This document shows positions 4,442 to 44,896 of a DNA stretch of 44,896 bases, in pieces; position 1 is the first letter of the stretch; each line of letters begins with the position of its first letter. The stretch is from Vermamoeba vermiformis (taxonomy: Eukaryota): NCBI GenBank assembly GCA_045837725.1, contig JBEWZL010000215.1:248001-292896 (forward strand). The letters are read 5' to 3'. The position numbers and the translations under genes are program-made. The notes under the pieces are model-generated. The model did not search any database. It worked only from the letters and a program-made list of their open reading frames with translations, and was not told the DNA's origin.

Positions 4442-5906
4442 ATGAATATCGCAATAATAGGCACCGGAAATTACGCTCAGGCATTAGGTAAACGTTTGCA
4501 GCAAGCAAAAATTACTGCCTGTTATGGTAAGTTAGAACTATTTATACCATTTCAGATCTGACCCGATTGCATAATTAGGTAGCCCTCGATTTTCAGAAAG
4601 TAGGTCGATTATGCTTAATGGATCTCCTGTTCGCTCAATAGAAGAAGTCGTTCGGGCTGCAACGATCGTTTTTCTTGCCATCCCAATGTCAGCGCACAGA
4701 TCCGTCGTTGGTAAAATATCATCAACTGCACGAGAAGGGACAATACTAGTAGACGTTAGCAACAGACCTCTAGCAGCTAGTAAGGCCCTCGCCCGACAAA
4801 AGAAGGAACAAGTGGCAGATCAGACCCGACACATCCAACAACTAGAAGAAGGACTACTCGTGCAAGAATCCAATTCGCATAACTCTAACTGCAGTGGATC
4901 GTGTCCTCATGGGATATGCTTTAGAGAAGCAGGCCTCGAATCACAAGCGGAGTGGTTGCAAGAGATGCTGCCTCAAATGCACGTCGTCAAAGCGTTCAAC
5001 ACTGTCTCGGCCTATTCACTGAACGCTTCGTTCGGTGAAAACGTCAATGACAGAGTTCACGTTTGCAGTGACCACGAACAAGCTCGCAAGACAGTTATTG
5101 ACCTCGTACAACGCATGGGCATGGTTGCAATGAACGCGGGACCTCTAACCAACGCCAGTCACCTCGAAGAAATTCCTGGAAAGTTGTTTCCGGCTTGGAA
5201 ACCACCTGTCATCATCAACACGGTGTTATTTATCTTAGCGTACACTTACGTTGCAGTTCGCGATGTGATTCTGAGTCCTTCAACGCCCTGGGAGAGAATT
5301 GCGCTCGTAAAGTTCAACATCGTCATGGCTTGGCACGCGACATTGCTGTTCACTGCCACAATAATTCCAGGAATTTTAGCTGCAATTGTTCAGTTGTGCC
5401 GAAACACCGCTAAAAGCTCGTTTCCGAACTGGTTAGCGGAATTTCTCAACGCCAGAAAAGGTCTTGGAATTCTCGGACTTTACTCCGCACTGATGCACGC
5501 TGTTGCTTCGTGCATGGTGAACAGCCTATTCGTCGACAACGATTATATTGACTCGATTGCTGGCTTTGCCTATCAACTCTCGGTCATCATGGCAATCCTA
5601 ACCACAGCTCTGTACATCACTCTTGGAATATCTTCGTTGCCTGGCGTGAGTGCGACACTCTCATGGCGTGAATGGCAATTCGTTCAATCAAAGCTGGGCT
5701 TACTCGCATTCACTGGCGCGTTCCTTCACATCAGCTCAATGTCGTATGCTGTCGGAGATTTGCTGTCGTTCAACGACTGGCCGTACTACTTGCCACCTGT
5801 CTCCGTATTGGCTTGCGTGCCTGTTGCATTGTGTCTCTTGCTCCGATTCATCTTCGGAGTTCCTCCGCTTGGCAGCCGTTTGGATAGGATTCGTGGACTT
5901 GCTTAA
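4442..5906 (+). CDS. STEAP2/3/4-like metalloreductase (F420/NADP oxidoreductase-like domain plus 6-TM ferric reductase domain)
   Basis: Exon 1 encodes the Rossmann motif 'MNIAIIGTGNYAQALGKRL'. Intron 4527-4578 (GTAAGT..TAG) joins in frame. Family motifs 'LVDVSN', 'VVKAFNTVSAY', 'LSWREWQFVQSKLG'; candidate heme His in 'LMHAV' and 'FLHI'. Confidence 0.9.
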
Positions 5907-6167: not shown

Positions 6168-7822
6168 ATGCAACACAAAAGCCGGATCGACCTTCTAGAA
6201 CAATGGTACTTCGGCAGTACTATTGCAGAAAAAAAAGTAAGCTTGTAAAAAGTATTTGATAGCGTTGCCGTTGATTTTGTCTTCATGAAAGAAGCATTTT
6301 GACAATTTTTTTTTAGCCGGATGTAGATTTTCTGTTGACACGCAAGCAATATCCAAAACAAATTAGATACCCAAATGCGCCTACTGGTCATTCGGAAAGC
6401 AGAGATATGGCGCCTATTGAGATTTTGCTCAAGCACTGCGCGGATCAAGACAGCAACTACTCAGAAAACTACCTTGCGTATGACGTAGCTACACGCAAAG
6501 CAGATCTTCGTTCAATTATTAGACGGCTGTTGCAAGCGTTATCAGGCGAAGATCTGGGAAAATTGTTGAACTCTAGTTTACTTGCCGGATCGACGGTGAA
6601 AGGTGCCCTCGCCAAATTGGATCTGCTACCAGAAGTACACTCGCATAATTAACAAATGATCCATTAGCTAATATTGTCCCTCTATAGGTCTTTCAAGAGT
6701 CCACAAAATTGTGGCAAGAAAATATCCCGTTTGATCTGGGCGCCATGTCAGTTCTCCCGCCTGAGATTCTTCACCCAATTTTCAAAACTTTGAATATAAA
6801 CGAAGCACGCAGAATCGCTCACGTGTCAAAGTCGTGGTTCAAAGAACTGACGTCACACGAAATTTGGCACGAAAAATCCAACTCGTCAAACCCTTACTTG
6901 GCGCTCTTGAAAAAAGAGTTCTATGCCAAGTATATGCCGCGCAAAAGAATTCATTTTGAAGACGTTGAGGTCGTCAATGGAGAAGGGTTGTTGGTCTACG
7001 AAGAAGGCTTTGAGCATTGCCTGCAACTGAACGGCCAGGTAGTGTCCAACGATCTAGCGAAATTTCATTTGACATTATGTCTAGCGGATTGCTTATGCAT
7101 GCGATGACAACCAAGGCTCCGTTGGACGATGCATGATTCGCTCAAAAGTCCTCACTCGCGAAGAGGTCAACAGCATTGTCGGGAGAATAGGTACGGTAGC
7201 ACGAACGTATATCATATATACTAGCAAAATATTATTCACGTACCATTCGCTTGCAGAGTCGTTCTTGAACGAAGGAGACTTGGATCTGAGTGTGCTGATT
7301 GAGACCATCAAGCCATTCATGCAGTGCTTGGCCAGCGGAACTTATCGCGTTCAAGTGCATCGGGTCGACGAAATTTCTATTGTAGAGTACAACTCGAATG
7401 ACATTCTTAACGAAATGATTCGTAAGTCCCAGCTTATCAATAGTCACTAATGAAAATTCTACCGTGCAGATACTTACCCACTCGACTTGACGATCTATTG
7501 CACGCAGCCTGTTGACAATTTGGATCAAGAACGTGTAACTTACTACGAGGACTTAATTAGACAAGGCAAACGGCCAGCAGTGTTGCTGCTTAACTGCAAT
7601 TGGTGCGATTCGTTTTTGATCGACGGTCATCACAAGGTACATTTCACCTTTCCTATCATCCAAACTCATCTAACGCGTTGCTTGTAACTTCAGCTCAAAG
7701 CCTACGCGAATCTGGGTCTGACAAGAGAGGCCATATTGATCGACATTGTACCCTTCTCCATGCCCGTTGCACGACACGAAGAAAACAACGAGCTCAATCA
7801 GTCAACCGACGGATTGCTCTAA
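6168..7822 (+). CDS. F-box protein with a C-terminal ParB/Srx-like 'DGHH' domain (multi-exon)
   Basis: ORF 6335-6652 splices (LPE|VFQ) to the F-box 'LPPEILHPIFKTLNINEARRIAHVSKSW'. Later exons give 'RPAVLLLNCNWCDSFLIDGHHK|LKAYANLG', stop at 7820-7822. Start uncertain (6168 or 6407). Confidence 0.65.
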
Positions 7823-7922
7823 CTATAACGAATGAGTACTTGTTTTTCATTTGATAATTTCAATTTTACGTTAATAAATACAACTTTTGTTCTTCTTTAC
7901 GTACGCAACTTTAGAGATATTT

Positions 7923-8307
7923 TTAGCTCTTGCGCAAGTACTTAGCGACCTCTTCCATCGTCTAAAGCAAGATAAGTATTAGCACTACGTTAATTTAGGT
8001 AAGTTTAAGCTTACAGGTCGATCAGCAGGATCCCTTTGCCAACACATTTCCATCACTGCTTGAAGCACTGGGTCGCAGCCATCAGGAATAACGGGATGGA
8101 ATGCTTCATCTCTAATCTTGACTCCAACGAACAATTGATCTTCTTCCGCGTGCGGTTCTTTGCCCGTAACGATCTCCCATACTAAGACACTAGTGTCAGA
8201 AATGTTTTTTTGACATGTGACAGGTGTCATAGTTTTTGCCTAAAATACCGTACGTCCATACGTCTGACTTGACGCTGTATGACTTGTCTCTCAAGCTCTC
8301 GGGGGCC
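7923..8307 (-). pseudogene. Orphan 3' fragment of a TKL/tyrosine-kinase-like protein kinase (subdomains VIII-XI only)
   Basis: Exons read 'APESLRDKSYSVKSDVWTYG', 'VWEIVTGKEPH...MEMCWQRDPADRP', 'TMEEVAKYLRKS*'. No upstream exons carrying GxGxxG/VAIK/HRD/DFG were found. Confidence 0.75.
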
Positions 8308-8337
8308 TAAAGACAATTGAATTAGTTAGAGTCCGTT

Positions 8338-8883
8338 TTATCGGTCTAGTTCGCCGTGACTCAGATGGAGATGGGTCAGACTTCGATTTTCAGTCAGTCC
8401 GGTTGCTAAAATTCCCACGATTACAATATTCACTACAAGGATATGTTATAGTAATTAAGTAATTCCCAAGGAAGAGGCGTACCATTTAAAGTAAGAGATT
8501 TAATGGATGTGGTCTCTTTCAAAAGCTGCTCTACTGCCTCGTAAATTTCCTTCTCAAAGTTTTCTATCGTCAAATCTTCTAATGTATTGGAAGTTTTTAG
8601 TGCGGTAATTAATGACGCTATTGATTGCGGTTCTGTAAAGAAACAGCGATTGAATTTTATAACCCGCAGTGAAGTATTTCCTCGTAAAGCTTCGACAAAA
8701 TATTCGTTTTTGCCTAGAAATACTAATTAATAATTATGTACATTATCATAAACTAAATTTGAAACCTTCTGAATACGGCCATACATCTAGATGAGTCATC
8801 GACGGCGCAATTTTAAAGCGGGTTCCTGCGAGATAAGCATTTTTGATATCTTGATCATTGTTAAGACAAGGAATATCTTCCAT
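8338..8883 (-). pseudogene. Truncated member of the LRR-SAM-U-box family (N-terminal exons only; copy F)
   Basis: Exon 1 'MEDIPCLNNDQDIKNAYLAGTRFKIAPSMTHLDVW' matches the family start. LRR-like exons follow ('ALRGNTSLRVIKF', 'LKETTSIKSLTLN', 'GLTENRSLTHLHL'), then TAA at 8338-8340. Confidence 0.7.
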
Positions 8884-9177
8884 TATCGTATTGTGTTGTT
8901 CAATTGACAAATTGAATTGAGTTTGAAAAACGAACTGATCTGCACCACAAGTAGTAAGTAGTAGTAATTACGACTAGCTTTACGCATTGATTAATTAATT
9001 AAGTCCAATTATTATGCTTGGAGATATAATTAGAGCGGTATTAAAGTTGTAAAACCAATTCTCCTCCAAATCACAATTGTAAATTTATCGTATTCTTACA
9101 CTCGGTAGTCTTCTCTTAGGTTTATATTTCCACGATTTATTGTACAAACAATGCAATTTGTAACAAACAAACGTAAT

Positions 9178-11322
9178 TCATTTTTTGTTGTTCGCGTCAA
9201 TGAACTCACGGATCATACTCTTCAACGTGTGCGAAGGAGTGAGTTGTTTGTTTGACAATTGAAGGCCAGTCATGGGAGAAGTATTGTTGTTCTTCAGCCA
9301 CAGTTCGATTGCTGTTCGTTCATAAGTGTGACCGTCACTCGCAAAGACAGGGTCGTTCATGATATCTTGCGTGATCGGGCAGATGAACGCTTCGGGAATC
9401 TTCGTTTTCTTCTCTTTAAGTGCAATTTTCAGCTCCTTGTTGAATCGTTTCATCTCCTCCAGTTGGTGTTCGAGTTGACTATTAGCCACGTTGTTATTAT
9501 TGTTGGCTAGGTTTTGATTAGGCAACATTCGGTCATCTAGTATTGATTCTTTTAGCCTTAAAATCTCTTTTTGAAGTTTGATGACATCGCTGAGTACTTT
9601 GATCTGAAGTTGACCGATCAGATCCACTTTCTCCAAGAACGCAAGATCTGCTCCTGTGATCTACAATAGCATCAAAATAGGCTCACGTTAGTACGTACTT
9701 GGGATTTAAATGTATTAGACGCACCTCGTTCTTCTTGAAGACGTCGACCAAGTGACCAAACTTGTTGTCTTCGAGCCACGTGCACACAGTGTCGTTGTTC
9801 CATTGCAGCACTCCTGGAGGTATCGTGTAGATGTCGTGGTGTGTTTCAATCAAATGGCGATACATGAGCAGTTGTTTGGCGTCCTTGAATGAAACCTCAA
9901 GATTGACAGTCAAGTCACTCGTGTCGAGCGCTTGAAGCACAGCGCCGTCAATGTTGTTGGCCTCAAACACGGAAGCGTATTTCTGCAGACCAACGTCTGT
10001 TAGTAAGAACAAGACATCGTTGTTGGTCCATTCGCTGATATCGGTTTGAAGCTTCTGTTGCCACTCCTTCAACGCTGGTTCGGTACGCTCGAACGACTCT
10101 TGGAACTTCTTCAAGTTGGCGCATAATGTCTCTTGTGCTTGTTTTTTGTCTTGTAAAGCTTTTGAGTCCGATTCAAGCTTTGATTCGGCAACGGCAATAT
10201 TTGATTCGATTTGGGCAAGTCTGCTTTGTAGTTCTTTCCTCTCCCTGGTCAGTACGTCCAATTGTTTGGTTGTTTCTTGTACAGCAACGTCCAACTTGAC
10301 ACTTTCTAGACACGTGTCATCAAGCAAATGCTTCAACGAATGAATCGCAAGCTTGTCTACGAAGGCCTTCGCACTTAAGTTCAGAACTTGCGGATAAACG
10401 TTATTTACAACTTTCTTATGGCAAACTTCTTTGATAACTTTCGCCAATTCTTCCCAATTGCTGTTTTTGATGTGCGACTCAATGTCGTGCAAATTCCGTT
10501 CAATTCCCGTCCTCTTGATCACTACTTTAAAATCACAAGGTTTTCGAGCTTTAAATTGTTACTAAGTGAAAAAAAATTTATCGAGCACTTACAATAGGCC
10601 GAAGGGTCGGTAGGTAGTTTTCTGCCGCTACTTAAAGCACTAAAGAGTTTTTGTGAGTCACATCTAGCGGCGAAAGGTACTTACATCACTGAATAGTCTT
10701 CAATTGTATCGTTGGCCTGCAGTGCAGTTAATATGCTATCGTAGTCTTTCCTAAGGACTGATGTTTCGCATTGATCATCGGGGAGTAGAAACGTTATTTG
10801 TTCTAAGCTTGAATTTGACGCCAATCCCTCTGAAATGATGTCAATGATTGCCGAATGGTCACCGAAGCCTATTAGGTTGTCGAAGTGAGCAAGTTGCCTG
10901 GTTAAACAACGTAAAAATGTTACCCCAAAGCTCGAGTTTTTTGATAACGCAATTTCGTTTTAGAAGTGTATTTAAGGCCATTAATATGTCTTTGCCGTAG
11001 CAATGAACATTTAATTCTTGCAGGGTGAGGGATCGCGTAAAAGCTGTCAAAATATCTGCGGCATCCGCTGCAATAGGAACGTTTATGGTTGCTTGAGTAA
11101 TTGAAGAATTTTTCCTGATAGCTTCTGCCACAAATTCACGGTTTGGCATTTTTTCTGAATTATTTTAATTTAGAAATTAAATAATTAACCTAGTTTCATC
11201 ATCTTACCTGATACTTCAGCCAGATCTACCCTAGTAACAGCTGGTGATATTAAAAATCGTGCTCCTGATTTAATAAATGATTGAATTTCCGCATCTGTCT
11301 TCAGAACCGGAATGATTTCCAT
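9178..11322 (-). CDS. LRR-like / coiled-coil / SAM-SAM / U-box E3 ubiquitin ligase, copy A
   Basis: Start 'MEIIPVLKTDAEIQSFIKSGARFLISPAV'; RI-like LRR exons; coiled coil; SAM 'WTNNDVLFLLTDVGLQKYASVFEANNIDGAVL'; SAM 'WNNDTVCTWLEDNKFGHLVDVFKKNE|ITGADL'; U-box 'IPEAFICPITQDIMNDPVFASDGHTYERTAIELWL..SPMTG'. Confidence 0.88.
9747..9835. repeat. Near-invariant direct repeat in the SAM1-SAM2 linker/SAM2 start (also ~12105, ~15585, ~17928, ~21013)
   Basis: accaagtgaccaaacttgttgtcttcgagccacgtgcacacNgtgtcgttgttccattgcagcactccNggagg is shared almost base-for-base by copies A, B, D and E; copy C differs slightly. Confidence 0.95.
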
Positions 11323-11557
11323 TGGTGTGCTTCACTTGCTGAATCCTTCCAAATAAACTTTCTCTCAATAAATAAATATTCTATCTAACGAGGTAATCCG
11401 AGCTCTGCTTTAAGAATACGAAATTCAATTTCCGCCACAGATGCGAATTGGCAAGCGGGTTCACAATTATAACTCCGAAGCTTTCACGTTAGTACTCTTC
11501 GTATCCAGTGGTTACAGGTTTATTGTAGAACAAAACTATTTGTTCGGAAACCTTTAA

Positions 11558-14500
11558 TCATTTTTTCTTGTTCGCGTCAATGAACTCGCGGATCATACTC
11601 TTCAAGGTGTGTGACGGTGTCAGTTGTTTGTTTGACAATTGAAGACCAGTCATGGGAGAAGTTCTTCAGCCACAGTTCGATTGCTGTTCGTTCATAAGTG
11701 TGACCGTCACTCGCGAACACAGGGTCGTTCATGATGTCTTGAGTGATCGGGCAGATGAACGCTTCGGGAATCTTCGTTTTCTTCTCTTTAAGTGCAATTT
11801 TCAGCTCCTTGAATCGTTTCATCTCCTCCAGTTGGTGTTCGAGTTGACTATTAGCTACGTTGTTATTATTGTTGATTATGTTTTGATTAGGCAACATTCG
11901 GTCATCTAGTATTGATTCTTTTAGCCTTAATATCTCTTTTTGAAGTTTGATGACGTCACCAATTTTTTTGATCCGTAGTTGACCGATCAGATCCGCTTTC
12001 TCCAAGAACACAAGATCTGCTCCTGTGATCTATTACACCCTTATATTAGCACGTGCTCGGGACCTAAATGTATTTCGCATACCTCATTCTTCTTGAAGAC
12101 GTCAACCAAGTGACCAAACTTGTTGTCTTCGAGCCACGTGCACACTGTGTCGTTGTTCCATTGCAGCACTCCCGGAGGAATCGTGTAGATATCGCGATGG
12201 GTTTGTATCAAATATATGTACATCAAAAGCTTCTTGGCGTCTTTGAACGAGACCTCAAGAGCGGAGATCAGGTCATTTGTTTCGAGCTGCAGAAGTACCG
12301 CGCCGTCAATGTTGTTTGACAGGAAGGAGCCACAGTATCGTGCAAGGCCTGTCTCTTTCAGTAATAACGTCACATCGTCCTTGGACCAAGTAGCAAAGTC
12401 CGTTTGAAGCGTTTGTTGCCACTTTTTGAGTGCTGGTTCGTTTTTCTTTATAGACGCTTGAAAATTACGGATATTCGTTGTAAGATTTTCTTGAACACGA
12501 GTACTGTCAGTCAATTCTCGTGATTGTTTCTGTATACTTGTATTTACGGATCTCATCCTTGCTTCAACCTCTGTAAGTTTTCGTTGCAATTCATTTCGTT
12601 CACTATTTAATCCAGCAATGGTCCTACTATTGGCATCGAGCTGCCCTTGCAAAGTAGCGCCTCGTTTCTGCGATTCTTGGAACAAGCCTTTCAGTGAATG
12701 AATGGCAAGGTTATCTATGAATGTTTTGGTGCTTAAACTAAGGTCGCTCGGATAAATTTCTGAGATCACGTGTTCGCCACAATTTTGTTGCAAATATTTC
12801 GCTAGTTCTTCCCAATTGCTGCTCTTTATAAAATTTTCGATGGTGCATAGCTGATTGTCTTTGAACAGCGTTCGCTCAATGGAAAACTCCGTGTGCGTCA
12901 CTAAAAATACGTTGGTATTATAATTGTTTAGTCTGAGTTGTACCTACCTATTGAATTATCATTTTGGTGCCCTGCGAAACATTCATCAGAAACAGATCTG
13001 ACCGAGATCAAAAATTCTTACCCCGTTTAGTAAATTTTGTTATATTCCCGTGATTCAGAAGTGCTTCCTTGAGTTTCTTCTCAAACTCGAATTGACCGTA
13101 GGCACTGGTTATATTCAGGGTCAGTTCGGTCAAGCTAGAATTTGCAGCCAGCCCATCTAAAAGTTGTGTTGCGTAAGAGGGTACAATTACACCTAATTGA
13201 TAATATTAGAAATTATAAAGAAATATTTGCAATAGTACCATCGAGATTTAGGGTTTTAATTGACGAGTTTTGTCGCAGAAAAGTGCTGATCGGAGGTGTA
13301 AGAATGAGGTGGTCTCCAAATTCAACAGTAAGACTAATAAGGGTTTTTGATTGAATAAGTGAATGAATTAAAGCCAGAGATTCGGTTTGGAATTTCCTGC
13401 CGCCGCCAGCGAGAATCGTCACATCCGTCAGTATTGATGACTATTGTAAAAAGAGATAAAGGAAAATTTATGATAAAATTAATTTAAATAGTGCATGCTG
13501 CTGCAAGGATATTTTAATTTATAATTTACGGCATTTCAATATTGTTAAGGTTCATTTTTCCGGTTGCGCCCACGAGATTCGAGAACCGTGAAGTCAATTT
13601 GACCACCGTGGATAAGTTTAGTGGGTTTAGTGGCACTAAAAATATATGACGCCGTTAATTTGCTAGTCGGCTCTAATTAAACTTTGAAATTTTTTACAGC
13701 CACATCCAGCAACGGATCTGCAGCAAAAATTCTTGCAAGCACAATACCATTAATATACATCCTGTTGCGTGATGGTTTTGTGCGAAAAGAAGAGATAGTA
13801 ACAGAAAAAATTTTGCACGAGAAAATATACTTTTTTACAAAAAAGGAAATAGCCGGGCACAAGAAACACGAAGGGTTTCTCTATTAGTAGTGCATCTTTT
13901 TGGTTGAAACTGCGGCTGTATCTTGATAATGTCGATGTACAATTGTTGTGCTTACAAGCATGTTTGAAAAACAATTACATCCGGCCCCTGATCCTGCAGG
14001 GGTTAGCCCTTAAGGGCAAAGTATTAGCTTGTTAAATTTTGAGAGAATAGTATAACTCTCATTACGTCATGGAGTAATACAGCAGGCACTGCCGATCTCA
14101 TTTAATTCGACAGATTGCTCTCAAAATAAATCTAATGGGCTAAACCTAGCTACAAGTATTTATATTGATTATAAAACATTCAAATTATCGCCAAAAACGA
14201 AGTAATTATGCAGACAAAGCGTCAATCCGATCTTCTAAAAAATATTCGCTCCAGAAATTTTTCTTGTGTAATCAAATGCTCAAAAATATATTTATTATTA
14301 GTATTAAAGATATTACGACTATTATCTAACGGAGCAAAATTCGCCGAGGCCTAATCTCACATCTGATCTCATAATTTGCCACAAAAACGAGCACAGCTGT
14401 TAATTATATCTATAATACACTGATGAAATACCTTAGATCATATACTAGCATTTGAACATCTGTTTGTTAATCACAACGGGCACGTGCCACATTCAGATGC

Positions 14501-14855
14501 GATTGCGACTCACTACCAATTTTAATCTCGTTTTGCCTCATTACTAAACAATATGTGTTGCATATAAAGAGTCATTATTGACAGTGTAAACTGTCGGAAC
14601 GCGCAAAAAAATCATGCCGAAATTTTCCTTTATCTCTTTTTACGATAGTTTTTGTTCAGTGACTTATTATTTTGCAAAGCCTCTTCCAGGTAGAGAAAAT
14701 TAGTGCGGGGTCCTAATTAATTTCGAACATTAATATTTCTTTTGCTAAAATAATTAAGATTAATAATTACCCGGGTCAATTTCCACACTTTTTACGTCCG
14801 ATCCTATTTTGCGTTTCTTCCTTGGGCTTGCAACGTCGTTTTTTGTGTTAATCAT
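11558..14855 (-). pseudogene. LRR-SAM-SAM-U-box copy B, disrupted by an insertion and a U-box frameshift
   Basis: Exon 1 'MINTKNDVASPRKKRKIGSDVKSVEIDP' (14855-14771). Exon 2 is interrupted by the 13433-14656 insertion. An 8-nt deletion relative to copy A (gtattgtt missing at 11660/11661) shifts the frame after 'WLKN'. Confidence 0.85.
13433..14656. mobile_element. ~1.2 kb non-autonomous insertion with 30-bp subterminal inverted repeats and a 4-5 bp target duplication
   Basis: actattgtaaaaagagataaaggaaaattt (13440-13469) is the reverse complement of 14620-14649 with 1 mismatch. (t)cagt flanks both sides (13428-13432, 14656-14660). Removing the element restores 'EEALQNNKSLTDVTIL'. No transposase ORF. 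Confidence 0.85.
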
Positions 14856-15026
14856 ATCTGCACTGCTTGTAGGCTTGCTTTGAAACGCGATCAGAAAAAT
14901 GGTTTGATTTTGCAAGAAACACAAATTTGATCCAATTCTCAAAGAATCGATCTAGAATGTAATTTATTGATCGTTATCATAAACAAATGGCGATTATTCC
15001 GTAATGCGGGTGCATCGTTACGTTGC

Positions 15027-17149
15027 TTATTTTTTCTTGTTAGCGTCAATGAACTCACGGATCATACTCTTCAAAGTGTGCGAAGGAGTGAGCTGTTTGT
15101 TTGACAATTGAAGGCCAGTCATGGGAGAAGTATTGTTGTTTTTCAGCCACAGTTCGATTGCTGTTCTCTCGTACGTGTGACCGTCACTCGCCACCACTGG
15201 CTCTTGCATCATGTCTTGAGTGATCGGGCAGATGAACGCTTCAGGTATCTTCGTTTTCTTCTCCTTTAGTGCGCTTTTCAGCTCTTCGTTGAATCGTTTC
15301 ATCTCTTCGAGTTGACGCTCCAATTGCTTGTTGCTTGCATTGCTGTTGCCAGTCTTAAGTTGTGCTTGTAGTCCGTGTTCGTCTTTTAGCGAGTCCTTGA
15401 GTTTCGCTATCTCCAAATGGAGTTTAATAACATCACCAAGCGCTTGGATTTTCAAATGACGTGTCAGTTCTGTCTTCTCTAGGAAGACGAATTCCGCACC
15501 ACAGATCTGTGCGTATGGTTAACAGGAGTAGTATTAACATGTCAAACGCTACCTGATGATTCGCGAATATGTCAACGAGATGACTAAACTTGTTGTCCTT
15601 CAGCCACGTGCACACGGTGTCGTTGTTCCATTGCAGCACTCCCGGAGGTATTGCGTATATGTCGTGTTGGGTTTGAACTAGATACACGTACATAAGAAGT
15701 TTCTTGGCCTCTTTGAAAGACACTTCGAGAGTCGATATCAAGTCGTCCGTTTCGAGCGCTTTCAGCACTGTTCCATCAATTTTGTTCGCCACAAAGACTT
15801 GCGAGTAGTTCCCAAGGCCAATCTCCGTGAGCAAAAATGACACGTCCTCACAGGACCACGTGCCAATGTCCGTTTGAAGCTTTTGCTGCCATTTCTTGAG
15901 AGCTGGCTCGTTCTTCTTCAGCGCATTTTCAAAGCTCTGCATATTTTCGCGAAGGAACAGCTGGGCAGCACTCTTCTCGGATAGCACTTGGCTATTCGAC
16001 TGAATTTGCGAATCGACTTTGATGAGATCTGCTTCGACTCCATCCAGCTGTTTTCGGAGTTCGTCGCGTTTCTTGGTTAGCGCCGAAAACTGCTTGCGTT
16101 TCTCCTCGGTCTCGGATTGAATTTTGTTCTTTTCGTTGGTCGCATCTTCTACCATTTTCTGCAAAGCATGAATTGCCAGCTTATCTACGAAGGTTTTAGT
16201 GCTCAAGTTGTGCCCTTCAGAGTAAAATTTTTTCAAGAGTACGGTCTGGCAGTTGCTTCTTAGAAACTGGGCCAGCTGTTCCCAGTTGCAGTTACTAATG
16301 AGTTCATCGAGTTGGTCTGTGGACCTTCTTTCGATTAGAAAGGACAGGTGCACTAGATCGTCTGGAAACCGTTAGCAGCAGTTGAAAGTATTAAGTTACA
16401 TACCAGTCACAACGGCGTGTGGAGATACGACGGATCCAAGACTTTTGGATTTAGGATTATTCTCTAAAGAGGGATTATCAGAGTGATTAAATATTAGATG
16501 TTTAGTAATTCAACTCACGTCTAATTTCAAATCGCAACACGGTAGGATTTTTCCGCAGTGCAGCGATAATTCTTTTGAAATCGTCGTGTATCTTTTCTCG
16601 CTGATTGTAGTTATCAAACGTTCTTACGTCAAGCGTAGTCAAGCTTGAGTTATCCTCCAGTCCCTTGTAAAACTGATCGGAGTTCATGCAACCGAAGCCT
16701 ATCAAATTGAAATAAGCATATTTACTAGAGTGAAACAGTACTTACCAATGATCGAGAGAGACTTAAGAGACGAGTTCTCCATTAACAGATTTCCCACAGA
16801 AGAAAAAAATCGCTCATTGTTGCTCTCAACTTCCAGTTCTCGAAGGACTTTTGATGCATGCAAGCTTTTAAGAATAGGCGCCAACTTAGTAGGAACAGTT
16901 CGCCACGAGTGGTTTAGTTTTACTGCTGTGATTGAATTGTTTTCTTGCAGCGCATCCGCAACGCAATGGTGATTTAATATTTGTTCTACCGCAATTAAGG
17001 GTTAATCAAGACATTATTGAATATTAATTATATTTACCTGTCCAAAGCTCAATTCTCTTCACTGATGAGGCAATTTTAAAACGTGTGCCATGGGTAATAG
17101 CGTTTTTGATATCCGCTTCGGTGCCAAGAGTGGGTATACTTACTTCCAT
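15027..17149 (-). CDS. LRR-like / coiled-coil / SAM-SAM / U-box E3 ligase, copy C
   Basis: Start 'MEVSIPTLGTEADIKNAITHGTRFKIASSV'; LRR exons 16502-16990; coiled-coil + SAM exon ~15553-16353; U-box exon ending 'REFIDANKKK*'. Confidence 0.88.
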
Positions 17150-17371
17150 CACTAGTGTTTGTAGGTGTATCAAATTAATTGGAATGGTCGGTTTTGTCGT
17201 GTTTCTTTTTTTGAAACGAATCACAAAATTGAATTCTATTCTTTTCCACAAAAGAATAGGTGCCAATATACGCGTGGACAGAAGCAGTAGTGAAATGTTT
17301 CACGTTTTACGATGGTTTTTGCAAGGAGAAGCGTGGAGAGCAGGATAAATCTTATAACCGAAGTGCAGTCG

Positions 17372-20113
17372 TTACTTTTTCTTTTTGGCATCAATGAACT
17401 CGCGGATCATACTCTTCAAGGTGTGCGAAGGTGTCAGTTGTTTGTTTGACAATTTAAGACCTGTCACGGGAGAGCTGTTGCCGCTCTTTAGCCACAGTTC
17501 GATTGCTGTTCTCTCGTACGTGTGACCGTCACTCGCGACCACTGGCTCTTGCATCATGTCTTGCATGATCGGGCAGATGAACGCTTCAGGTATTTTGGTT
17601 TCACGTTGTTTGAGAGTCAGTTTGAGCTCTTCGTTGAATCGCTTCATCTCTTCGAGTTGACGTGCAACGTAGTCATTGACGTTATTGGTTTTCTGGCGTT
17701 GATTTTGCAAGCTATGGTCATTCGATAGCGAATCCTTAAGTATTGAAATCTCTTTTTGCAGCTTAATGATGTCGCCCAGAGCTTGAATTTTTAAGTGATT
17801 GTTTAGATCCACTTTGTCCAAGAAAGCAAGCTCGGCTCCTGTTATCTATTTACCTCAAGTCAGTACTTGAGGTACGCACTGGTGGTCTAAATAAATTTCA
17901 CTTACCTGATGTTTCCTAAAGACTTCGACCAAGTGACCAAACTTGTTGTCTTCGAGCCACGTGCACACGGTGTCGTTGTTCCATTGCAGCACTCCCGGAG
18001 GTATCGTGTAGATGTCGCGATGTGCTTGAACCAAGTGGACGTACATTAATACACGTTTGGCTTCTTTAAAAGTTAATTTGAGGTTCGCTGACGTAAGATC
18101 AATAGTGTCGAGTGCTGAAAGTAAGGCGCCGTCAATCTTGTGGCTTGCAAAAGCGGAGGTGTACGCTTTGAGTCCAATCTCAGAGAGCAAGAACTGGACG
18201 TCTTCCGAGCTCCAGTCAGCCAAGTCAGTGCGTAGCTTTTGCTGCCACCTAGATTTGTTTTTGTATGACTCCCAATAAGCCTCTAGCTTGGTGGCGAGTG
18301 TCTGGATGCAGTTCTTGTACACTCTTGTATTTACATCGAAGTCTTGCTTATTATGCGTCGGTTGCAAGAAGTCTGCCTCGATAATACCAATGACGCCAAC
18401 TGCATCTGGATTGATCTGATTTTGAATTCCGACGCGCAAGTATGGTTTGATGAGGCGATTTCTGTGGTAGAGCATGATGCCATACAAATTAGGATTATCC
18501 ACGTTCATGCCAAATGTAATCCTCGTGTTTTTCTACAAATACAAAAAAAATTAAAATGTGCCAAGGAGTGGCTAATAGCGAAATAAATATAAAGCGCATA
18601 TGCTTAAAATAAAGCCATTACTTACATAAACATCAAACATACGGTTGGCAAGTGAAGCGTCTACAAATTTTGGTTGAACCTTTGTGCCTCGCAAGACGAT
18701 AATCATTCTCGGCTTTGAATATAATATAGAGCAGTATTCCTGATATTAGATAGTGTCATTAGCATGCAAAAGAAGCAGATAGGACTGCTAGACTTACTCG
18801 CAGCGAGAAATCAATCGGACTTTTAACATGCGTGCCCTGGCCTGTTTGGTGCTGTTGGAAATGCAGCCTTTTGCCTTTAGGACTCTGAATACAGATTAGA
18901 TGGTGCATATCCGAGACCTTAAAGCTTACCAATACATTGGCTATCCTAATATCACATGGGTCTGTTTCAAAATCGAGCTCGTATGGCGCATCCCGCTCTG
19001 TTGAAATTTTTAGCAATGGTTGACGTTGATCCAGTTAATTATACGTACCTTTACCAACTGTTCGCAAATTATATACAACGATATGAGTACCAGTGCCTCT
19101 CTTGGTACCATTAGGTATTCTTTTGAATCTGTTCATCATGTCGTGGATCGTTTTGAACGGTGAGTAGGTTTGAATAGCACCTAGACTTTGCTCGGCGGCT
19201 TGAAGCTCTGTAAGACACTCTAAATATAACGGTAAGCAACTTTTAAGTAGCAACAGTGTTCTAATTGGACTTACTTCCAGTCGCATCCCACGTAACCATC
19301 GGAATGAGGACTGAAGTTGCATTTTCAGCGAATAAAAAGGTTTGAGACAACATGCCAATGCTATAAGTACTTTTTGATTTCGAAAAAACGATTACATCTC
19401 GGCCTAAACGCATTGAACCGGATTTGAATCCGTTGCCGTAGTGACCGATCGGTTTATGTCCATTGACTTCTTCCTGCATTGACGGTTATGAAATTAGACA
19501 TGTTTTTAATAATAAAGTAAGTTTAACCCAGACAGAGCTTCGAAAAGCAGTGAATTCGCTCGTGTCAGTCAGTCACGTACCTTCTCACAATATCCAAAAC
19601 TCAGCATTTTGTATAATTTATCGATTTCCATGCCGTAGCCATTATCGGTGAAGCATAATCGAGGCTGGCCGTTTTTTTCTTCTTCGACATCGATCCAAAA
19701 TCTGGTTGCCATAACATCCGGATCTGTCGCATTATCTGTGCAATGTTTTAGTTACGTAACTATAGTAATATTCAGTCGTACGTACCCACGAGTTCGGCTA
19801 TTGCTCCGAAGGCCCAAATGTGACTTGTCGAATTGCTGTGCAAAAATTTGGGATGTGTCTGCAATTTGGATAATAATTAGTACGGGCATGTAAATATAAT
19901 GTAATAATTAATAAATAATTGTAATAATTAATATTGTATCATTTTTGCAATCAATTTGCGAATTGGTGTTCCAGCGAGATCGCTCGAATCTATCTTTTCA
20001 ATTAAATATTTAGAAATAATACATACCATGCTTTGTTCAACAAAGCAATATTTTTTGGCTGCATTTGATTGCGCCTCGTGAGGAGTCGCAGCTGCTGGAT
20101 TACGGATTGCCAT
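17372..20113 (-). CDS. Chimeric MORC-family GHKL ATPase-S5 fused to SAM-SAM-U-box (copy D)
   Basis: MORC motifs '[25 protein letters not shown]', 'FTDNGYGM', '[16 protein letters not shown]', '[11 protein letters not shown]', '[14 protein letters not shown]', '[10 protein letters not shown]'. Within one exon these continue into 'WQQKLRTDLADWSSEDVQFLL' (SAM), SAM2 and then the U-box exon. Confidence 0.9.
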
Positions 20114-20348
20114 CTTCGCGACTGACTGACGATTTAAAATTGAATTGATTCTTCTCTCGCCGTAATAAATATTATTGTAAACGGTGTATTTATTTACAAA
20201 GCTGGGTAGGAGCTGATTTTGGGTCTACTTGCGATCTGCGAACACCCTTTCGAGTATTTTCCAAAATCGCCTCGTGGTTGCTCTATCTACAGAATTTGAC
20301 TGCGTTAGCGCGGCGCCGAAACTTGTTTGACAGAAAACTCTTCCGTGA
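18287..20348. repeat. Inverted segmental duplication, partner at ~42790-44896
   Basis: Exons, introns and upstream DNA all match. For example aaaatcgcctcgtggttg.tctatctacagaatttgactgc (20263-20303) is the reverse complement of 42848-42888. Confidence 0.95.
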
Positions 20349-20473
20349 CAACGCAATCCACAAGAAAGAACGTCTCGATTTGGTTGGCCAATTAATATCG
20401 GCACCTCATTTTTTTAAGCGTCATGAATTACAGTTTATTGTTGAACAAATATTGGTGAGGCCTTTCGTATTGT

Positions 20474-22585
20474 TCATTTTTTCTTGTTAGCGTCAACGAA
20501 CTCGCGGATCATACTCTTCAAGGTGTGTGAAGGAGTGAGTTGCTTGTTTGACAATTGAAGACCAGTCATGGGAGAAGTGTTGTTGTTCTTCAGCCACAGT
20601 TCGATTGCTGTTCTCTCGTACGTGTGACCGTCACTCGCGACCACTGGCTCTTGCATCATGTCTTGTGTGATTGGACAGATGAACGCTTCAGGTATTTTGG
20701 TTTCACGTTCCTTGAGAGTCATTTTGAGCTCTTCGTTGAATCGTTTCATTTCGTCAAGTTGACGAGCTAGTTGATCGTTATTGTTGTCCTTCAGTTCCAA
20801 GATTTGTTCATTGCGTAGCGAATCTCTGAGCTTAGAGCTTTCTTTTTGAAGCTTAACGACGTCGCCGAGAGTAGCGATCTTCAAATGATTGGTCAGATCC
20901 GCTTTCTCCAAGAATGCAAGTTCAACGCCAGTAATCTACACGAAAGCAATGTTAACATCAGTCTGATACGTTAGGTATTATTTTACGTACTTGGTTCTTC
21001 TTGAAGACATCGACCAAGTGACCAAACTTGTTGTCTTCGAGCCACGTGCACACGGTGTCGTTGTTCCATTGCAGCACTCCTGGAGGTATCGTGTAGATGT
21101 CGTGCTGGGTTTGAACCAAGTGAACGTACATTTGCAGCTTCTTGGTGTCTTTAAATGACAAGTGAAGAGTCATCAAATCATTGGTGTCAAGACACGCGAG
21201 TGCCGAGCCATCAATATTGTTGGTTGCGAAGGCGGAAGCGTAGTTTTTCAAACCTACTTCTGCTAGTAAGAGCGATACATCTTCAATACTCCATGTGCTG
21301 AGGTCGGTTTGTAACTTCTTTTGCCATCTCTTTAGCGCTGGTTCGTTTGAACTCAACGCAGCCTGAAATCTGGTCAAGTTCGCAAGAAGGTTATCCAGTG
21401 CGGAGTTTTTTGCCGTTAAAGAGTTTGATTCCGATTTGATCTCCTCGTTGACTTGTTCGAGTTCTGTTTCCAGCGCCAAAAGTTGTCGTCGTACTTCGAT
21501 CAGCTTGGCTGAAAGGGTCTCGGATTTGGTCATCTTTTCAGTGAGGGATGACATCAGTGCGTTAGTCTCCTCTTTTGTTTCGTTGAGTAGTTGACTAATT
21601 GAGTGGACGGCGAGTTGGTCCGCGAAAGTCTTGTTGCTCAAATTGCAATCTTGCGGGTAGATCTGGCCTTCGACGATACGTGCAGGACAGGTCTCTTTCA
21701 AGAACTTGGCCATCGCCTCCCAGTCGGGACTATTGGACAAGAGAAATTCTTTTGCGGGTGCCTTTCGTTCAATTGTAATGCACAAGCGCGCAGCCTGAGC
21801 ATCTGCTGGGGTTAGCAAACATAATACTACTCACGCTTACATACCTGACAGAGATTTGTCGGGCGATATACTGAAGCAAGCTCCCGAGCCACCTTAATCT
21901 AGAATTAAAAAGGGGGATAACTGAGAGCGACTTACTTTGGATCGCAAATTGTTTAATATTTGGATTTAACCGCAAGGCAGCAATGATTTTTCGAAAATTT
22001 TCGTTTATCGCTGTGATGCTAGCACGATTTCCTCCAATACTATAGTTTTCAAGCTCAAACCGAGTTAACTCAAGTCGTAGCAGCGACGAATTTCTTGCCA
22101 AACCTGAATAAAATTCTTCCGGTTTCATGTAGCCCAAACCTGAAAAATATCAGTCTGAAGAATTTTCAATAGTAGTGCTTACCGGAAATAGAAAGCGACT
22201 TGAGCAAAGTATTCTCTTTCAGCAGAGTACCCAGCGCGACATACATATCATCTTTATCACTGACTACGGTAAGCTCTTGCCAAATTTTGGAGTGTTTCAA
22301 ACTCGCTAAAAGTGGCACTATTTGTCCAGGATCTGTGTTCCAAAAGTGATTTATTTTCAAGCTGGTGATGGAGGTGTTATTTCTTAAAGCTTCTTCAACG
22401 TAGTCCTGGCAGGCAATTATATCTATTAATTTATTTTAAAATTATTATAAACAAAAATAAATTGGAATCCGGGTACCTGTCGCTACTTCCAGAGACGTTA
22501 TTTCTGCACCAATTCTGAATCTTGTTCCATCAAGAATAGCGGTGTTTATGTCATCATCGGTGTTAAGAGTAGGTATTGCTGCCAT
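20474..22585 (-). CDS. LRR-like / coiled-coil / SAM-SAM / U-box E3 ligase, copy E
   Basis: Start 'MAAIPTLNTDDDINTAILDGTRFRIGAEITSLEV'; LRR exons 21850-22420; coiled-coil + SAM exon 20990-21810; U-box exon 20474-20936. Confidence 0.88.
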
Positions 22586-22649
22586 CGTTAGCGTTGTCGT
22601 TTGTATTGCGGTTAGAAAGAATAGACGTTTTTGACCCAAAAAAAGAATT

Positions 22650-23548
22650 TTATTCTGCGGACGAAACTTGATAAAAATAATATGAACCCCAAGGTAGCGC
22701 TATCTCCGCTGTATTATATGACGGTTAACGAAGAACGATCAAAGAGGTGTCTAGATCGAGTTATCACTTACCCAAATCTTTAATAACGAGACCACCTTCT
22801 TCTTCGAGCACATATTGATAGACTTCAGGACCAGCAAAAGTAAACATCAAGAATTGTCCATCCGGCTTCAAAACTCGTTTGATCTGTTTTGCAATGTCTG
22901 TTGCCACTGAAAACGTCTCCATTTCAGTAAGCAATGCATCAAGAGTACCTACAATAATATATATTAACGCCTCAGAAGGAGCTAAACACGTAAACCAATT
23001 CGCCAGTTCACAAACTTGAATCCGGATTTACGTTCTGACATTTCTATTACCTTTGTCAATGATGATATCGAAGGACTTTGCATCAAATGATAATTTGCTC
23101 GCGTCCATGGCAATAACTATTTACAAGGATTGTTAGTGGTCGTTTCCAAGCAGATGTGCTTAGAAACTTGCTTACATTTAATACTACGACTCTCTTTGGC
23201 CTTGTTCATTTTTTCTACGACAACTTCGGAGATGTCGATGCAGGTAATGTCTTGAAATCCATCGTCATAGAGTTTGAAACCCAAATCTAAAAGGCGCAAA
23301 AATAATTAAAAATCAGGCGAGTTTCAAACCGCTTAATATTGCATAAAAAAATTATTACCTGATTCGCCACACCCAATAATTAATATTTTATGATTTTTCT
23401 TCAAGATCGGCTCGAATAAAGTCTTAGCAGCCTCGTAGTTCAGATACCAATCCGAATCTCGCTTAGCTGTATCATCTGCGTATACACCATCCCAAAACTC
23501 TTTCTTTCCGTAGTTACTGTTAGTAATATCCTCGTTTTGCGCCATCAT
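22650..23548 (-). CDS. Class I SAM-dependent methyltransferase, EEF1AKMT4/METTL13-N-like
   Basis: 'YGKKEFWDGVY...DWY', 'ILIIGCGES', 'ITCIDISEVVVEKM', 'SFDIIIDK|GTLDAL', 'RVLKPDG' across about five exons. Confidence 0.85.
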
Positions 23549-29343: not shown

Positions 29344-31164
29344 CGGAAGATCAAACAGAACCAGCTTGAACGAGTTATTAAGAACGAATCACGATTTCTT
29401 AGTAATATTAGAAGTCTAAAAATTGCTTGGCAGAAGAATTACGTCGATTATACCAATTTTTTCAACAAAATTACAACGTTAACGCAATTTACCGCGATCA
29501 GCTACGAAAGGTCAAGCAACCCCTATTATACTCAAATAAGCGATATAATCGTCAATAATAAGGACAATTTACGAGAAATATCGCTAACGAACAACATGCG
29601 TTCAAAAAATATGATGACAGATCAAAGCTGCATCCAACTTTGTAACGCTCTGCGGAATAACTCAACGATAACCTCGTTATATCTCGACGATTATTTTGGG
29701 ACTATAGAACAAGTTAATATGTTTATGGAGACTATTAAGACGATGAGTGCACTGACAAAGTTAGAGTTGCTAGGAATTTCCGAAATAAGCGGATCTGCTT
29801 CAGCTAATATAATTTACAATGCGCTTCAAAACCATCCATCAATTACTTCATTAGGAATGCTGTATTGGGGACATACAGATGATGCAAAGGCGTTTCATGA
29901 ACTGTTGAAAAATTCTCCGAAATTGTCCGAGATCAAAATATCTTGCAGGAGACGAGGCGAAATAATTGCGTTAAATCAAATTATACAAGATAATAATAGT
30001 AATATAACGTCTATAGTATTCAAACATTACATCATGGAAGTCAATCTATTGCACGGTCTTGGATCCAATCAAAAAATTACGAAACTGGAATTAACTCATT
30101 TTAGAAGCGCCGAAGAATTGGCAAAATTATTGCAATGGTTACAACAAATGAATTCATTGACGGATTTAACGATAAACAATTTCGGAAGCGATGAACAACT
30201 TGCATTATTTTGCGATTATTTGCAATCTGCAAAAATTCAACGCTTGACGATCAAGTTGTTCAAAGAAACCACTGACATGGAGGTGATCGAGAAATTTATC
30301 GGAGTAATTGAAAATCACAAGACAATTACAACTTTGTCCGTGAACAATTTGGCCGTCGGATGTAACTCCGAAGTGGCATTCAGAAAACTTTTAATGAACA
30401 ACAAAACATTAACGGATCTGACACTAACAAGGGTCGATATAACAGAAGAATTCTTAGCAATGTTAGAGGAAGTGTTGGAATCGAATTCATGTCCAAATTT
30501 GGAAAGTTTAGCAATTAAGGAAAAAACGATTTTTTCAAAAGCCGTAATGCAAAGATTTTGTGCGGCGTTAAGTAAGAACGAAACACTAAGGAAATTTAAA
30601 TGCGGATATGTTGGATACTACAACGCTCAAAGTATATATGCATTAATACTAAACAATAACACGATCGAAGAGATGGATCTGCGTTTTGATTATGCCAATT
30701 TTGATGATGTTGATGGGGTGTTTAGGACTTCATTGGTTGAGGCACTTAAAATGAACAAAAATATTACCAAATTTACGGCAAACTATGATTTGGAAGATTA
30801 TGAGCCGTATTTGGAGAACAACAGAAAATTGCGAAACGAGATCCGACAAGATTTTATCATCTTGATGCATAACCTCACAAACAATACTTCACCGTTACCT
30901 ATGGAACTGTGGCACATTATTTTTTCACAGACAAAGATTCAAGCAGTTGATAAAAAGTTCATCGAAAAAGTTTTAAAACTGCGTAACGATTAACACCGCA
31001 AATGTCCATACAACGATGGATTAAATAATATTGTTAATTTATGACCTAACACAGACAAAGACACGGCAAAAAAATTACTGGCGTCTGGCATGCACTGGGA
31101 CCATTCACTTCATCCTAACGCTAACGACCACCAAGAACAGTTCTTTGAGATGCTCTACGAGTAA
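29344..31164 (+). CDS. RI-like LRR protein with an F-box-like motif near the C-terminus
   Basis: Frame is open from an acceptor at ~29343. Repeated 'ALxxNxxITxLxL' motifs; 'LPMELWHIIFSQ'. Probable last intron 30983-31054 and last exon to TAA 31164. Start may be an ATG|GT at 29190. Confidence 0.75.
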
Positions 31165-43067: not shown

Positions 43068-44896
43068 ATGGCAATCCGTAATCCAGCAACTGCGACCCCT
43101 AGCGAGGCGCAACCAACGTCAGATGCTGCCAAAAAATATGCTTTTGTTCAACAGAGCATGGTATGTATTATTTCTAAATATTTAATTGAGAAGCTAGATT
43201 CGAGCGATCTCCAATCTCCAATTCGCAAATTGATCGCAAAATTGATACAATATTAATTATTACAATTATATTTACATGACCATATTAATTATTATCCAAA
43301 TTGCAGACACATCCAAAATTTTTGCACAGCAATTCGACAAGTCACATTTGGGCCTTCGGAGCAATAGCCGAACTCGTGGGTACGTACGACTGAATATCCC
43401 CATAGTTACGTAGCTAAAACATTGCACAGATAATGCGACAGATCCGGATGTTATGGCAACCAGATTTTGGATCGATGTCGAAGAAGAAAAAAACGGCCAA
43501 CCTCGATTATGTTTCACTGATAATGGCTACGGCATGGAAATCGATAAATTATACAAAATGCTGAGTTTTGGATATTGTGAGAAGGTACGTGACTGACTGA
43601 CATGCGCGAATCCACTGCTTTTCAAATTTCAATTCCAAAGTTCTGTTGGGGTTAAACTTACTTTATTATTCAAAACATGTCTAACTTCATAACCTTCAAT
43701 GCAGGAAGAAGTCAATGGACATAAACCGATCGGTCACTACGGCAACGGATTCAAATCCGGTTCAATGCGTTTAGGCCGAGATGCGCTCGTGTTTACTCGA
43801 TCAAAGAGTACATTTAGCATTGGCATGTTGTCTCAAACCTTTTTATTCGCTGAAAATGCAACTTCAGTCCTCGTACCAATGGTTACGTGGGATGCGACCG
43901 GAAGTAAGCCCCAGTTAGAACACTGTTGCTGCTTAAAAGTTGCTTACCGTTATATTTAGAGTGTCTTACAGAGCTTCAAGCCGCCGAGCAATGTCTGGGA
44001 GCCATTCAAACCTACTCACCGTTCAAAACGATCCACGAGATCATGAATAGATTCAAAAAGATACCTAATAGTACCAAGGGAGGTACTGGCACCCACATCG
44101 TTGTATATAATTTGCGAACAGTTGGCAAAGGTACTTATAAATTAACTGGATCAACGTCAACCATAGCTAAAAATTTCGACAGAGCGGGATGCGCCATACG
44201 AGCTCGATTTTGAAACAGACCCACGTGATATTAGGATAGCCAATGTATTGGTAAGCTTTGAGATCTTGGATATGCATCGTCTAAAATGTATTCAGACTCC
44301 TGAAGGCAAAAAGCTGCATTTCCAACAGCATCGAAATGGCCAGGGCACGCAGGTTGAAATTCCGATTGATTTCTCGCTGCGAGTAAGTCTAGCAGTCCTA
44401 TTTGCTTCTTTTGCATGCTAATGACACTATCTCTTATTAGGAATACTGTTCTATATTATATTCAAAGCCGAGAATGATTATCAACTTGCGAGGCACAAAA
44501 GTTCGAACAAAATTTGTAGAAGCTTCACTCGGCTACCGTATGTTTGATGTTTATGTAAGTAACGGCTTTATTTTAAGCATATGCGCTTTATACTTAGTTC
44601 TCGATAAGATAATCCTTGGCGCATTTTATTAAATTTTTTGTTCGCTCCAGAAAAACACGAGGATTACATTTGGCATGAACGTGGATAATCCTAATTTGTA
44701 TGGCATCATGCTCTACCACAGAAACCGCCTCATCAAACCATACTTGCGCGTCGGAATTCAAAATCAGATCAATCCAGATGCAGTTGGCGTCATTGGCATT
44801 ATCGAGGCAGACTTCTTGCAACCGACGCATAATAAGCAAGACTTCGATGTAAATACAAGCGCGTACAAGAACTGCATCCAGACACTCGCCACCAAG
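43068..44896 (+). CDS. MORC-family GHKL ATPase, 5' part (runs off the window end)
   Basis: Same exons and motifs as 18287-20113 in inverted orientation; ends at '[25 protein letters not shown]'. Confidence 0.92.

Follow-up and report, generated by a model that had tools for sequence, protein, structure and literature searches.

A stretch of 44,896 nucleotides (nt) from a contig of Vermamoeba vermiformis (JBEWZL010000215.1, positions 248,001 to 292,896; hereafter the window, numbered from its first letter) carries six genes placed head to tail on the minus strand at 8338-22585 with a spacing of 171-360 nt. The array is a real, expressed and unnamed gene family. It probably represents a family of modular U-box E3 ubiquitin ligases that is specific to its lineage and has swappable heads, and the assignment of its products as oligomeric E3 ligases of this kind is well supported by domain content. 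Four copies are intact (A, C, E and D, 624-680 amino acids (aa)), B is broken and F is truncated. The window has a G+C content of 34-45% and is eukaryotic DNA. An initial annotation, made from the letters alone, had recognized six same-strand units (F, A, B, C, D and E) within these limits; all six indeed lie on the minus strand, and the limits are exact, corresponding to the end of the F stop codon (8338) and the ATG of E (22585).

Gene structure and transcripts

Gene models were derived from splice joints together with GT-AG sites and homology. The joints come from contigs of two public runs (X4 and X7, differently labelled organisms, presumed to be RNA) that were compared with the window over 7900-23000, and statements based on them concern the 15 joints listed out of 30. 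The contigs skip segments of 42-58 nt with CT..AC ends, equivalent to minus-strand GT..AG introns, and were taken as RNA because these spliced joints are present. All five introns of C are joints in X4, four of them also in X7, while joints in X4 or X7 account for four of the five introns of E, and X4 for four introns of B. Intron 1 of E (22423-22476) is predicted, as are the five introns of A from GT-AG sites and homology, with the acceptor of A intron 3 ambiguous among in-frame options. Coordinates are collected in Table 1.

Table 1. Positions of the array genes, the SAM2-splitting introns and associated features in the window
Feature	Position	Strand	Description
Gene F	8338..8883	-	147 aa then TAA; exons 8766-8883, 8483-8713, 8338-8432
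Gene A	9178..11322	-	Intact, 624 aa, six exons; LRR, long helix, SAM, SAM, U-box
Gene B	11561..14855	-	Pseudogene here; four introns are joints in X4
Gene C	15027..17149	-	Intact, 626 aa, six exons
Gene D	17372..20113	-	Intact, 680 aa, ten exons (predicted); MORC GHKL ATPase, S5, SAM-SAM-U-box
Gene E	20474..22585	-	Intact, 624 aa, six exons
SAM2 intron, copy A	9661-9724	-	
SAM2 intron, copy B	12030-12082	-	
SAM2 intron, copy C	15507-15552	-	
SAM2 intron, copy D	17846-17905	-	
SAM2 intron, copy E	20936-20990	-	
Insert in B exon 2	13428..14655	.	1228 nt, 30-nt terminal inverted repeats
Kinase C-lobe remnant	7923..8306	-	PK_Tyr_Ser-Thr positions 172-250 of 258
Second MORC gene	43068..44896	+	Nine exons, open frame; inverted relative to D

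The intron that splits the second SAM domain (SAM2), which the initial annotation had described as common to the five U-box copies, has an identical site and phase in A-E, lying in phase 0 after an identical codon (..KKN[E/Q] / ITG..). An intron is found at the identical site in two metagenome loci (L001 and L002). The RNA-derived contigs show it spliced out directly in C and E; for A and B the last exon is reached via chimeric contigs only, and the D intron is absent among the joints listed. The contigs that join the last exon of A or B to exon 5 of E are best read as assembly switches within the near-identical end of exon 5.

Domain organization of the intact LRR members

The products of A, C and E (~625 aa each) comprise a small leucine-rich repeat (LRR) domain, probably of the tropomodulin type, a helix of ~110 residues, two SAMs and a C-terminal U-box, and in the intact LRR members the order is short N-cap, LRR, a conserved helical motif (NWEEL), the long helix, SAM-SAM, a helical linker and U-box. 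Pfam was run on ten exon open reading frames (ORFs) of the window. The U-box exon of A matches the U-box family (PF04564) at 5e-22 (score 78.3 bits, cut-off 21.4; positions 1-72 of the 73 in the profile); A was the copy scanned, and the U-boxes of the other four are assigned from their 84-99% identity to it. The nearest solved chains are plant PUB12 (9.9e-16) and LubX (1.8e-15). SAM_1 is matched at 1.4e-12 in A and 7.2e-13 in D. Each U-box exon is preceded by a large exon that gives coiled-coil and SAM signals.

The head is assigned from profile and fold comparison. When the exon-2 sequences of A, C, E and F are combined in a profile, 22 PDB chains match at E<=10, among them the LRRs of leiomodin-2 (2.1e-4) and tropomodulin, which together range up to 0.02, and those of other ribonuclease-inhibitor (RI)-type proteins. 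The AlphaFold2 (AF2) model of exon 2 (predicted local distance difference test (pLDDT) score 65.8, medium) forms three helix-strand units, covering three repeats only, and its top Foldseek match in the PDB is 1io0, the C-terminal domain of tropomodulin (E 4.3e-4, template modelling (TM) score 0.74, root-mean-square deviation of 2.4 Å). With exons 1-3 the head would span five to six repeats of the tropomodulin/RI type in ~170 residues.

Both by sequence and by fold, the head is matched best by the actin-binding LRRs of tropomodulin and leiomodin, as would be expected if the genes encoded housekeeping or cytoskeletal regulators, with LRR caps that bind actin or an abundant partner, ligases that tune turnover and copies that accumulated by neutral duplication. 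Transcripts also turn up in ordinary assemblies of runs from two organisms with different labels, and WDSUB1, the homolog of the tail considered below, is reported to act on the structural protein USH2A (PMC10238197). Such a role is nonetheless quite improbable, given that identity to tropomodulin is only 15-26%, that other RI-type LRR proteins match too, and that the heads are ~70% different between paralogs with one of them a MORC ATPase, a poor fit to a single common partner.

In the AF2 model of E exon 5 (pLDDT 83.3) residues 54-163 form a single helix, followed by SAM1 and the first half of SAM2. The ~110-residue helix is expected to form a coiled coil. SAM1 weakly resembles the polymer-forming SAMs of SAMD1/atherin and polyhomeotic (0.004-0.005), and a two-copy complex prediction for the SAM pair of a relative (P0008, residues 55-203) gave a score of 0.02 relative to a mark of 0.32, a result indifferent to binding. 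NACHT, NB-ARC, TIR and death-fold domains were not found by Pfam in the ten exon ORFs scanned. Membership among the NLR/STAND immune receptors was considered and rejected, with neither NACHT nor NB-ARC found in those exon ORFs.

Divergent heads on conserved tails

In a MAFFT alignment of the six proteins the mean pairwise aa identity is low in the N-cap (0.35), LRR (0.31), NWEEL helices (0.41) and coiled coil (0.31), and higher in SAM1 (0.61), SAM2 (0.72, range 0.61-0.93), the linker (0.66) and the U-box (0.92, range 0.84-0.99); at the DNA level the five copies share 72-82% identity over their last ~900 nt. The domains have thus diverged unevenly, region identities running from 0.31 to 0.92. 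The initial annotation had described N-terminal exons that are barely alignable and SAM2 and U-box exons that are nearly identical. Both parts of this wording are overstated, given the identities just listed. Special hypervariability of the LRR, which it had also proposed, is not supported, the divergence being equal to that of the coiled coil.

From the N-terminus to the end of SAM1 synonymous sites are saturated, 0.7-0.9 of them differing, so that in the heads the ratio of non-synonymous to synonymous rates (dN/dS) is not estimable and positive selection not demonstrable. Of the per-domain dN/dS analysis that had been suggested, the U-box part could be completed, giving 0.015-0.17 across ten pairs with a synonymous difference proportion of 0.24-0.51, whereas the saturated heads yielded no estimate. 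Most copies are old paralogs, at odds with a recent birth-and-death burst, although duplication, decay (B and F) and a head swap (D) are evident in the array as had been claimed.

Third-codon-position identity reaches 0.7-0.93 in two tracts, one at the end of exon 5 (its last 30 codons) and one in the U-box, in nearly all of the ten pairs, compared with a background of 0.2-0.5 between the tracts. Between A and B it is 0.83-1.0 from SAM2 to the stop codon, and the similarity extends past the stop. We read the likeness of the tails as probably due in part to gene conversion and in part to strong purifying selection.

A pseudogene, a deletion chimera and a MORC fusion

The pseudogenized copy, the truncated copy and the domain swap of the initial annotation were all recovered, as B (the 1228-nt insert and an 8-nt U-box deletion), F (a stop after 147 aa) and D (a MORC head where the other copies have LRR and coiled coil), respectively. 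Exon 1 of B is unrelated to the other copies (MINTKNDVASPRKKRK..) and contains a PRKKRK stretch. The insert in B exon 2 is bounded by inverted repeats (13440-13469 and 14620-14649, 97% complementary), TCAGT may be a 5-nt target duplication, and all ORFs within its 1228 nt are shorter than 75 aa. A spliced X4 contig passes from 13427 to 14656 without these nucleotides, which are not bounded by canonical splice sites. The non-splice ends, the inverted repeats and the missing ORF together identify the insert as a non-autonomous inverted-repeat transposon that is absent in the X4 organism. The deletion in the B U-box, defined relative to A, shifts the frame so that the last third of the domain is lost, at a spot outside X4 coverage. 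An exon-5 ORF that is 93.4% identical to B is open in another assembly (P0076). X4 has an extra TTG at 11808, restoring a codon that is missing in B relative to A.

Gene F consists of the N-terminal exon and LRR exons only, and an X4 contig covers 7900-8907 at a depth of 8.7-10. The F stop is directly followed by half an intron (its 3' part) and then by a kinase C-lobe remnant (Pfam PK_Tyr_Ser-Thr, E 1.9e-5 and 9.8e-8), which begins at an intron acceptor (APE..DVWTYG), is without an N-lobe, and has an intron at 7962-8014 that is a joint in X4. The succession of stop codon, half intron and C-lobe exons indicates that F is a deletion chimera. A GTAATC near 8428, in F exon 3, could splice in frame to the kinase acceptor at 8307 to give a fusion of LRR and C-lobe; no such F-kinase joint is among the joints listed.

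In D the head is a MORC ATPase with canonical motifs (Morc6_S5, 1.5e-24, on the exon that precedes the U-box exon; HATPase_c_3, 1.1e-4, on one exon farther upstream; both Pfam). The MORC portion ends after ..YWESYKNKS at ~18251/18252, where RWQQKL.. opens the SAM tail. An X4 contig matches D up to 18252, beyond which it runs on for 255 nt of unrelated sequence (5 of 30 letters agree). This implies that an unfused MORC form exists and that recombination took place with its breakpoint at 18251/18252. The second MORC gene has the exon structure of D and leaves the window 40 nt short of the point at which D switches to SAM. The two are 88.6% identical in nt in a self-comparison of the window, and over 396 codons the aa identity is 0.914 with dN 0.042, dS 0.143 and a ratio of 0.29, which fits constraint on both. 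Per exon their identity is a mosaic of 82-99%, suggesting gene conversion.

With two of six units broken and a transposon in B, the cluster might be taken as decaying and of little present function, a view that we find hardly credible in the face of four intact ORFs of 624-680 aa, a U-box dN/dS of 0.015-0.17, the existence of spliced transcripts and, in another assembly, open exon-5 reading frames that match those of A, B and E at 93-99% identity.

Relatives beyond the window

A HMMER search of a representative library with E exon 5 yielded 72 proteins at E<=1e-3, of which 20 were at <=1e-10 and 7 at <=1e-30. The matches at E<=1e-10 are mostly ORF-sized pieces, many ending at the SAM2 intron site. 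Domains were scanned in 34 of the 72 (up to ~470 aa and matched beyond one SAM, long multi-SAM proteins and the weakest matches being left out), with SAM detected in 32, SAM-SAM-U-box within one ORF in 5 and RING in 1. A exon 5 had no match at E<=0.001 in 2436 longer candidate proteins. As a lead only, the best Atlas score for one relative (P0030) was 0.82, to a U-box cluster.

Among other strains, one further assembly contains exon-5 ORFs that match A, B and E at 94.6%, 93.4% and 98.6% identity, respectively, along with more paralogs. Among metagenome contigs 8 of 30 pattern matches were confirmed. One locus (L001) has RI-type LRR exons, the whole tail and the same SAM2 intron, and Pfam LRR families were not found in its LRR exons; two others (L002 and L003) combine an ankyrin repeat (PF00023, 2.5e-5) with the tail. 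The architecture originally proposed, a variable head followed by two SAMs and an intact U-box, is supported by domain content, with an ankyrin head on the same tail in a metagenome relative. In viral contigs an exon-5 alignment scan confirmed none of 11 pattern matches.

A profile of the tail finds eight proteins, the only named one being snail WDSUB1 (3e-22), and the source-labelled database relatives are all annotated as hypothetical protein except animal WDSUB1. Four relatives carry zf-CW (PF07496), and in none of the 22 matches to the D junction exon does Morc6_S5 occur together with SAM. A literature search returned no report of an LRR-SAM-SAM-U-box or a MORC-U-box protein.

The U-box itself extends into bacteria, where 33 loci (L009-L041) have U-boxes that are 36-63% identical, with one at 25% (best segment). 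The taxa named include Amoebophilus, Protochlamydia, Chlamydiales, Simkaniaceae, Paracaedibacteraceae, Jidaibacter, Midichloriaceae and Tatlockia, and many, judging by record titles, live in amoebae and other protists as endosymbionts or pathogens. Upstream of E position 513 no residue was matched by any bacterial locus, so that the U-box is all that they have in common with the array.

Comparison with known ligases and oligomerizing proteins

The tail of the array proteins is homologous to that of WDSUB1, as judged from sequence: the last exon is collinear with the C-terminal half of the WDSUB1 SAM and with the linker and U-box that follow (35% identity, 3e-25), and both place a repeat-domain head before SAM and a C-terminal U-box. 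In Marín (2010, PMC3087547) WDSUB1 is described as WD40-SAM-U-box, and a Monosiga gene as having two SAMs and a U-box without WD40. The WDSUB1 head consists of seven WD40 repeats, whereas array heads are LRR or MORC (ankyrin in relatives), and the array differs further in its two SAMs, the ~110-residue helix, the NWEEL motif, a longer linker before the U-box and its tandem diverged paralogs. WD40 was not found by Pfam in the window exons scanned. With LRR or MORC heads and no WD40 in those exons, the array family is related to WDSUB1 and is not a bona fide member.

The order LRR, coiled coil, SAM and RING-class E3 domain is shared with LRSAM1, which, according to a review (PMC7874611), has LRRs, two coiled coils, SAM, PTAP and RING, uses its LRRs in pathogen and substrate recognition, and self-associates. 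LRSAM1 ends in a RING, while the array proteins have a U-box with RING-type Pfam models below cut-offs; LRSAM1 has a PTAP motif, and P[TS]AP is absent from all six array proteins; the array proteins also have two SAMs. No LRSAM1 chain was among the PDB search matches and no sequence relation was found, and the likeness is an analogy of layout, not membership. Neither WDSUB1 nor LRSAM1, the two nearest known systems, had been named in the initial annotation.

Other systems share single parts. SARM1 has two adjacent SAMs like the array proteins, which are without its ARM and TIR domains, and the SARM1 SAM pair forms an octamer. Gene D shares with MORC ATPases the S5 domain and the GHKL ATPase motifs, which we take to be the N-box and G-boxes, the usual C-terminal parts being replaced in D by SAM-SAM-U-box. 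With plant PUB proteins and bacterial LubX the similarity is confined to the U-box.

The initial annotation had taken the array for a candidate immune receptor locus. In this reading the genes encode dedicated innate immune receptors, in which LRR or MORC heads would sense bacteria inside the cell, viruses or effectors of either, and SAM assembly would activate the U-box to tag the invader, as LRSAM1 does in animal xenophagy. The layout parallels that of a ligase whose LRRs take part in recognizing pathogens (PMC7874611), and the tandem arrangement, the presence or absence of the insert between strains, the pseudogene, the chimera and the interchangeable LRR, MORC and ankyrin heads would all be in keeping with it, as would U-boxes 36-63% identical in bacteria, many of them endosymbionts of protists, which would fit mimicry of a host ligase. 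That mimicry is however not family-specific. The exons scanned contain no NACHT, NB-ARC, TIR or death-fold domain, the LRR cap is small, with five to six predicted repeats, and no more diverged than the coiled coil, dN/dS of the head is not estimable, the paralogs are old, and the part of the WDSUB1 literature surveyed mentions no immune role for this tail homolog. A dedicated receptor function is therefore unlikely, if still to be taken seriously; as a reading it is a guess that draws only on the LRSAM1 analogy and the style of the array.

Neighbouring genes and a shared upstream motif

Two intronless divergent ORFs of 549 and 546 aa (29344-30993, plus strand, and 31500-33140, minus strand) have RI-type LRR-like repeats throughout and end in LPxE[IL]WxxIF, resembling an F-box start. 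Marginal Pfam matches (LRR_6, 0.02; F-box-like, 0.015-0.022) were obtained for the 31500-33140 ORF only, and against the LRR profile of the array the two ORFs gave weak hhalign probabilities of 31% and 2%. Neighbouring ORFs at 6688-7107, 135-647 and 4575-5906 (plus strand) and 40578-41015 (minus strand) include an F-box (5.4e-7), ankyrin repeats (6.9e-5) and a STEAP-like reductase, for which the nearest Atlas clusters are animal (score 0.88-0.90). One neighbouring ORF carries a DEMGLGKT motif, presumably SNF2-helicase-like.

The 10-mer AATTCAATTT occurs 6 times where 0.83 are expected (0 of 100 shuffles reach 6), at 3258-3267, 8909-8918, 11422-11431, 17226-17235, 20137-20146 and 43035-43044. 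Five of the sites lie 24-109 nt upstream of the starts of F, A (inverted), C, D and the second MORC gene. The motif was spotted post hoc, D and the second MORC gene are duplicates of each other, and the element may simply belong to promoters in general.

Discussion

The domain content suggests a mechanism in which the head (LRR, the MORC ATPase in D, or ankyrin in the metagenome relative) would bind a target, the coiled coil and SAM pair would gather several chains, and the U-box would recruit a charged E2 so that the bound target is ubiquitinated. The array itself may have arisen by tandem duplication, the heads having reached an old, saturated divergence while repeated gene conversion and strong purifying selection kept the tails alike. 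Recombination would then have replaced the head in D, and copies would have been lost via transposon insertion, deletion and truncation (B and F).

Several observations weigh against a family of expressed ligases with swappable LRR heads. The RNA origin of X4 and X7 is presumed, and one X4 contig keeps the E intron at 22138-22180; this contig also carries several differences from the window. Introns are predicted rather than observed in A, D and F and at intron 1 of E. Two raw RNA-seq runs of ~13 million reads each (X17 and X19), which carry the species label of the best-matching DNA source, gave 2 and 3 partly fitting reads in a comparison without a control gene, a scarcity that could reflect silence or a diverged strain. 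Pfam LRR families were not found in the four LRR-like exon ORFs (E<=0.1), so the LRR call depends on the PDB profile match at 2e-4 and the medium-confidence model. Low synonymous divergence in the tail could stem from nucleotide-level constraint instead of conversion.

For a family of modular ligases, a biological role related to conflict or defence is possible, though we hold it tentatively and on balance doubt it. A further and improbable extension is a plug-in form of surveillance, in which unrelated heads are set on one conversion-homogenized tail, paralogs co-assemble via their SAMs into mixed ligase complexes, and the U-box has been copied by the intracellular bacteria of protists as a means of interference. 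If so, the MORC head could read nucleic acid or chromatin, and the MORC-SAM-SAM-U-box chimera would represent a novel type of ATP-driven sensor ligase.

As a modular ligase family, the array constitutes a compact natural experiment, presenting one ligase tail with several heads and a dated chimera (D) beside its unfused paralog. If the heads select targets, it would offer a tractable model of how E3 specificity is swapped by recombination and a candidate equivalent, in a unicellular organism, of cytosolic surveillance of the LRSAM1 type.

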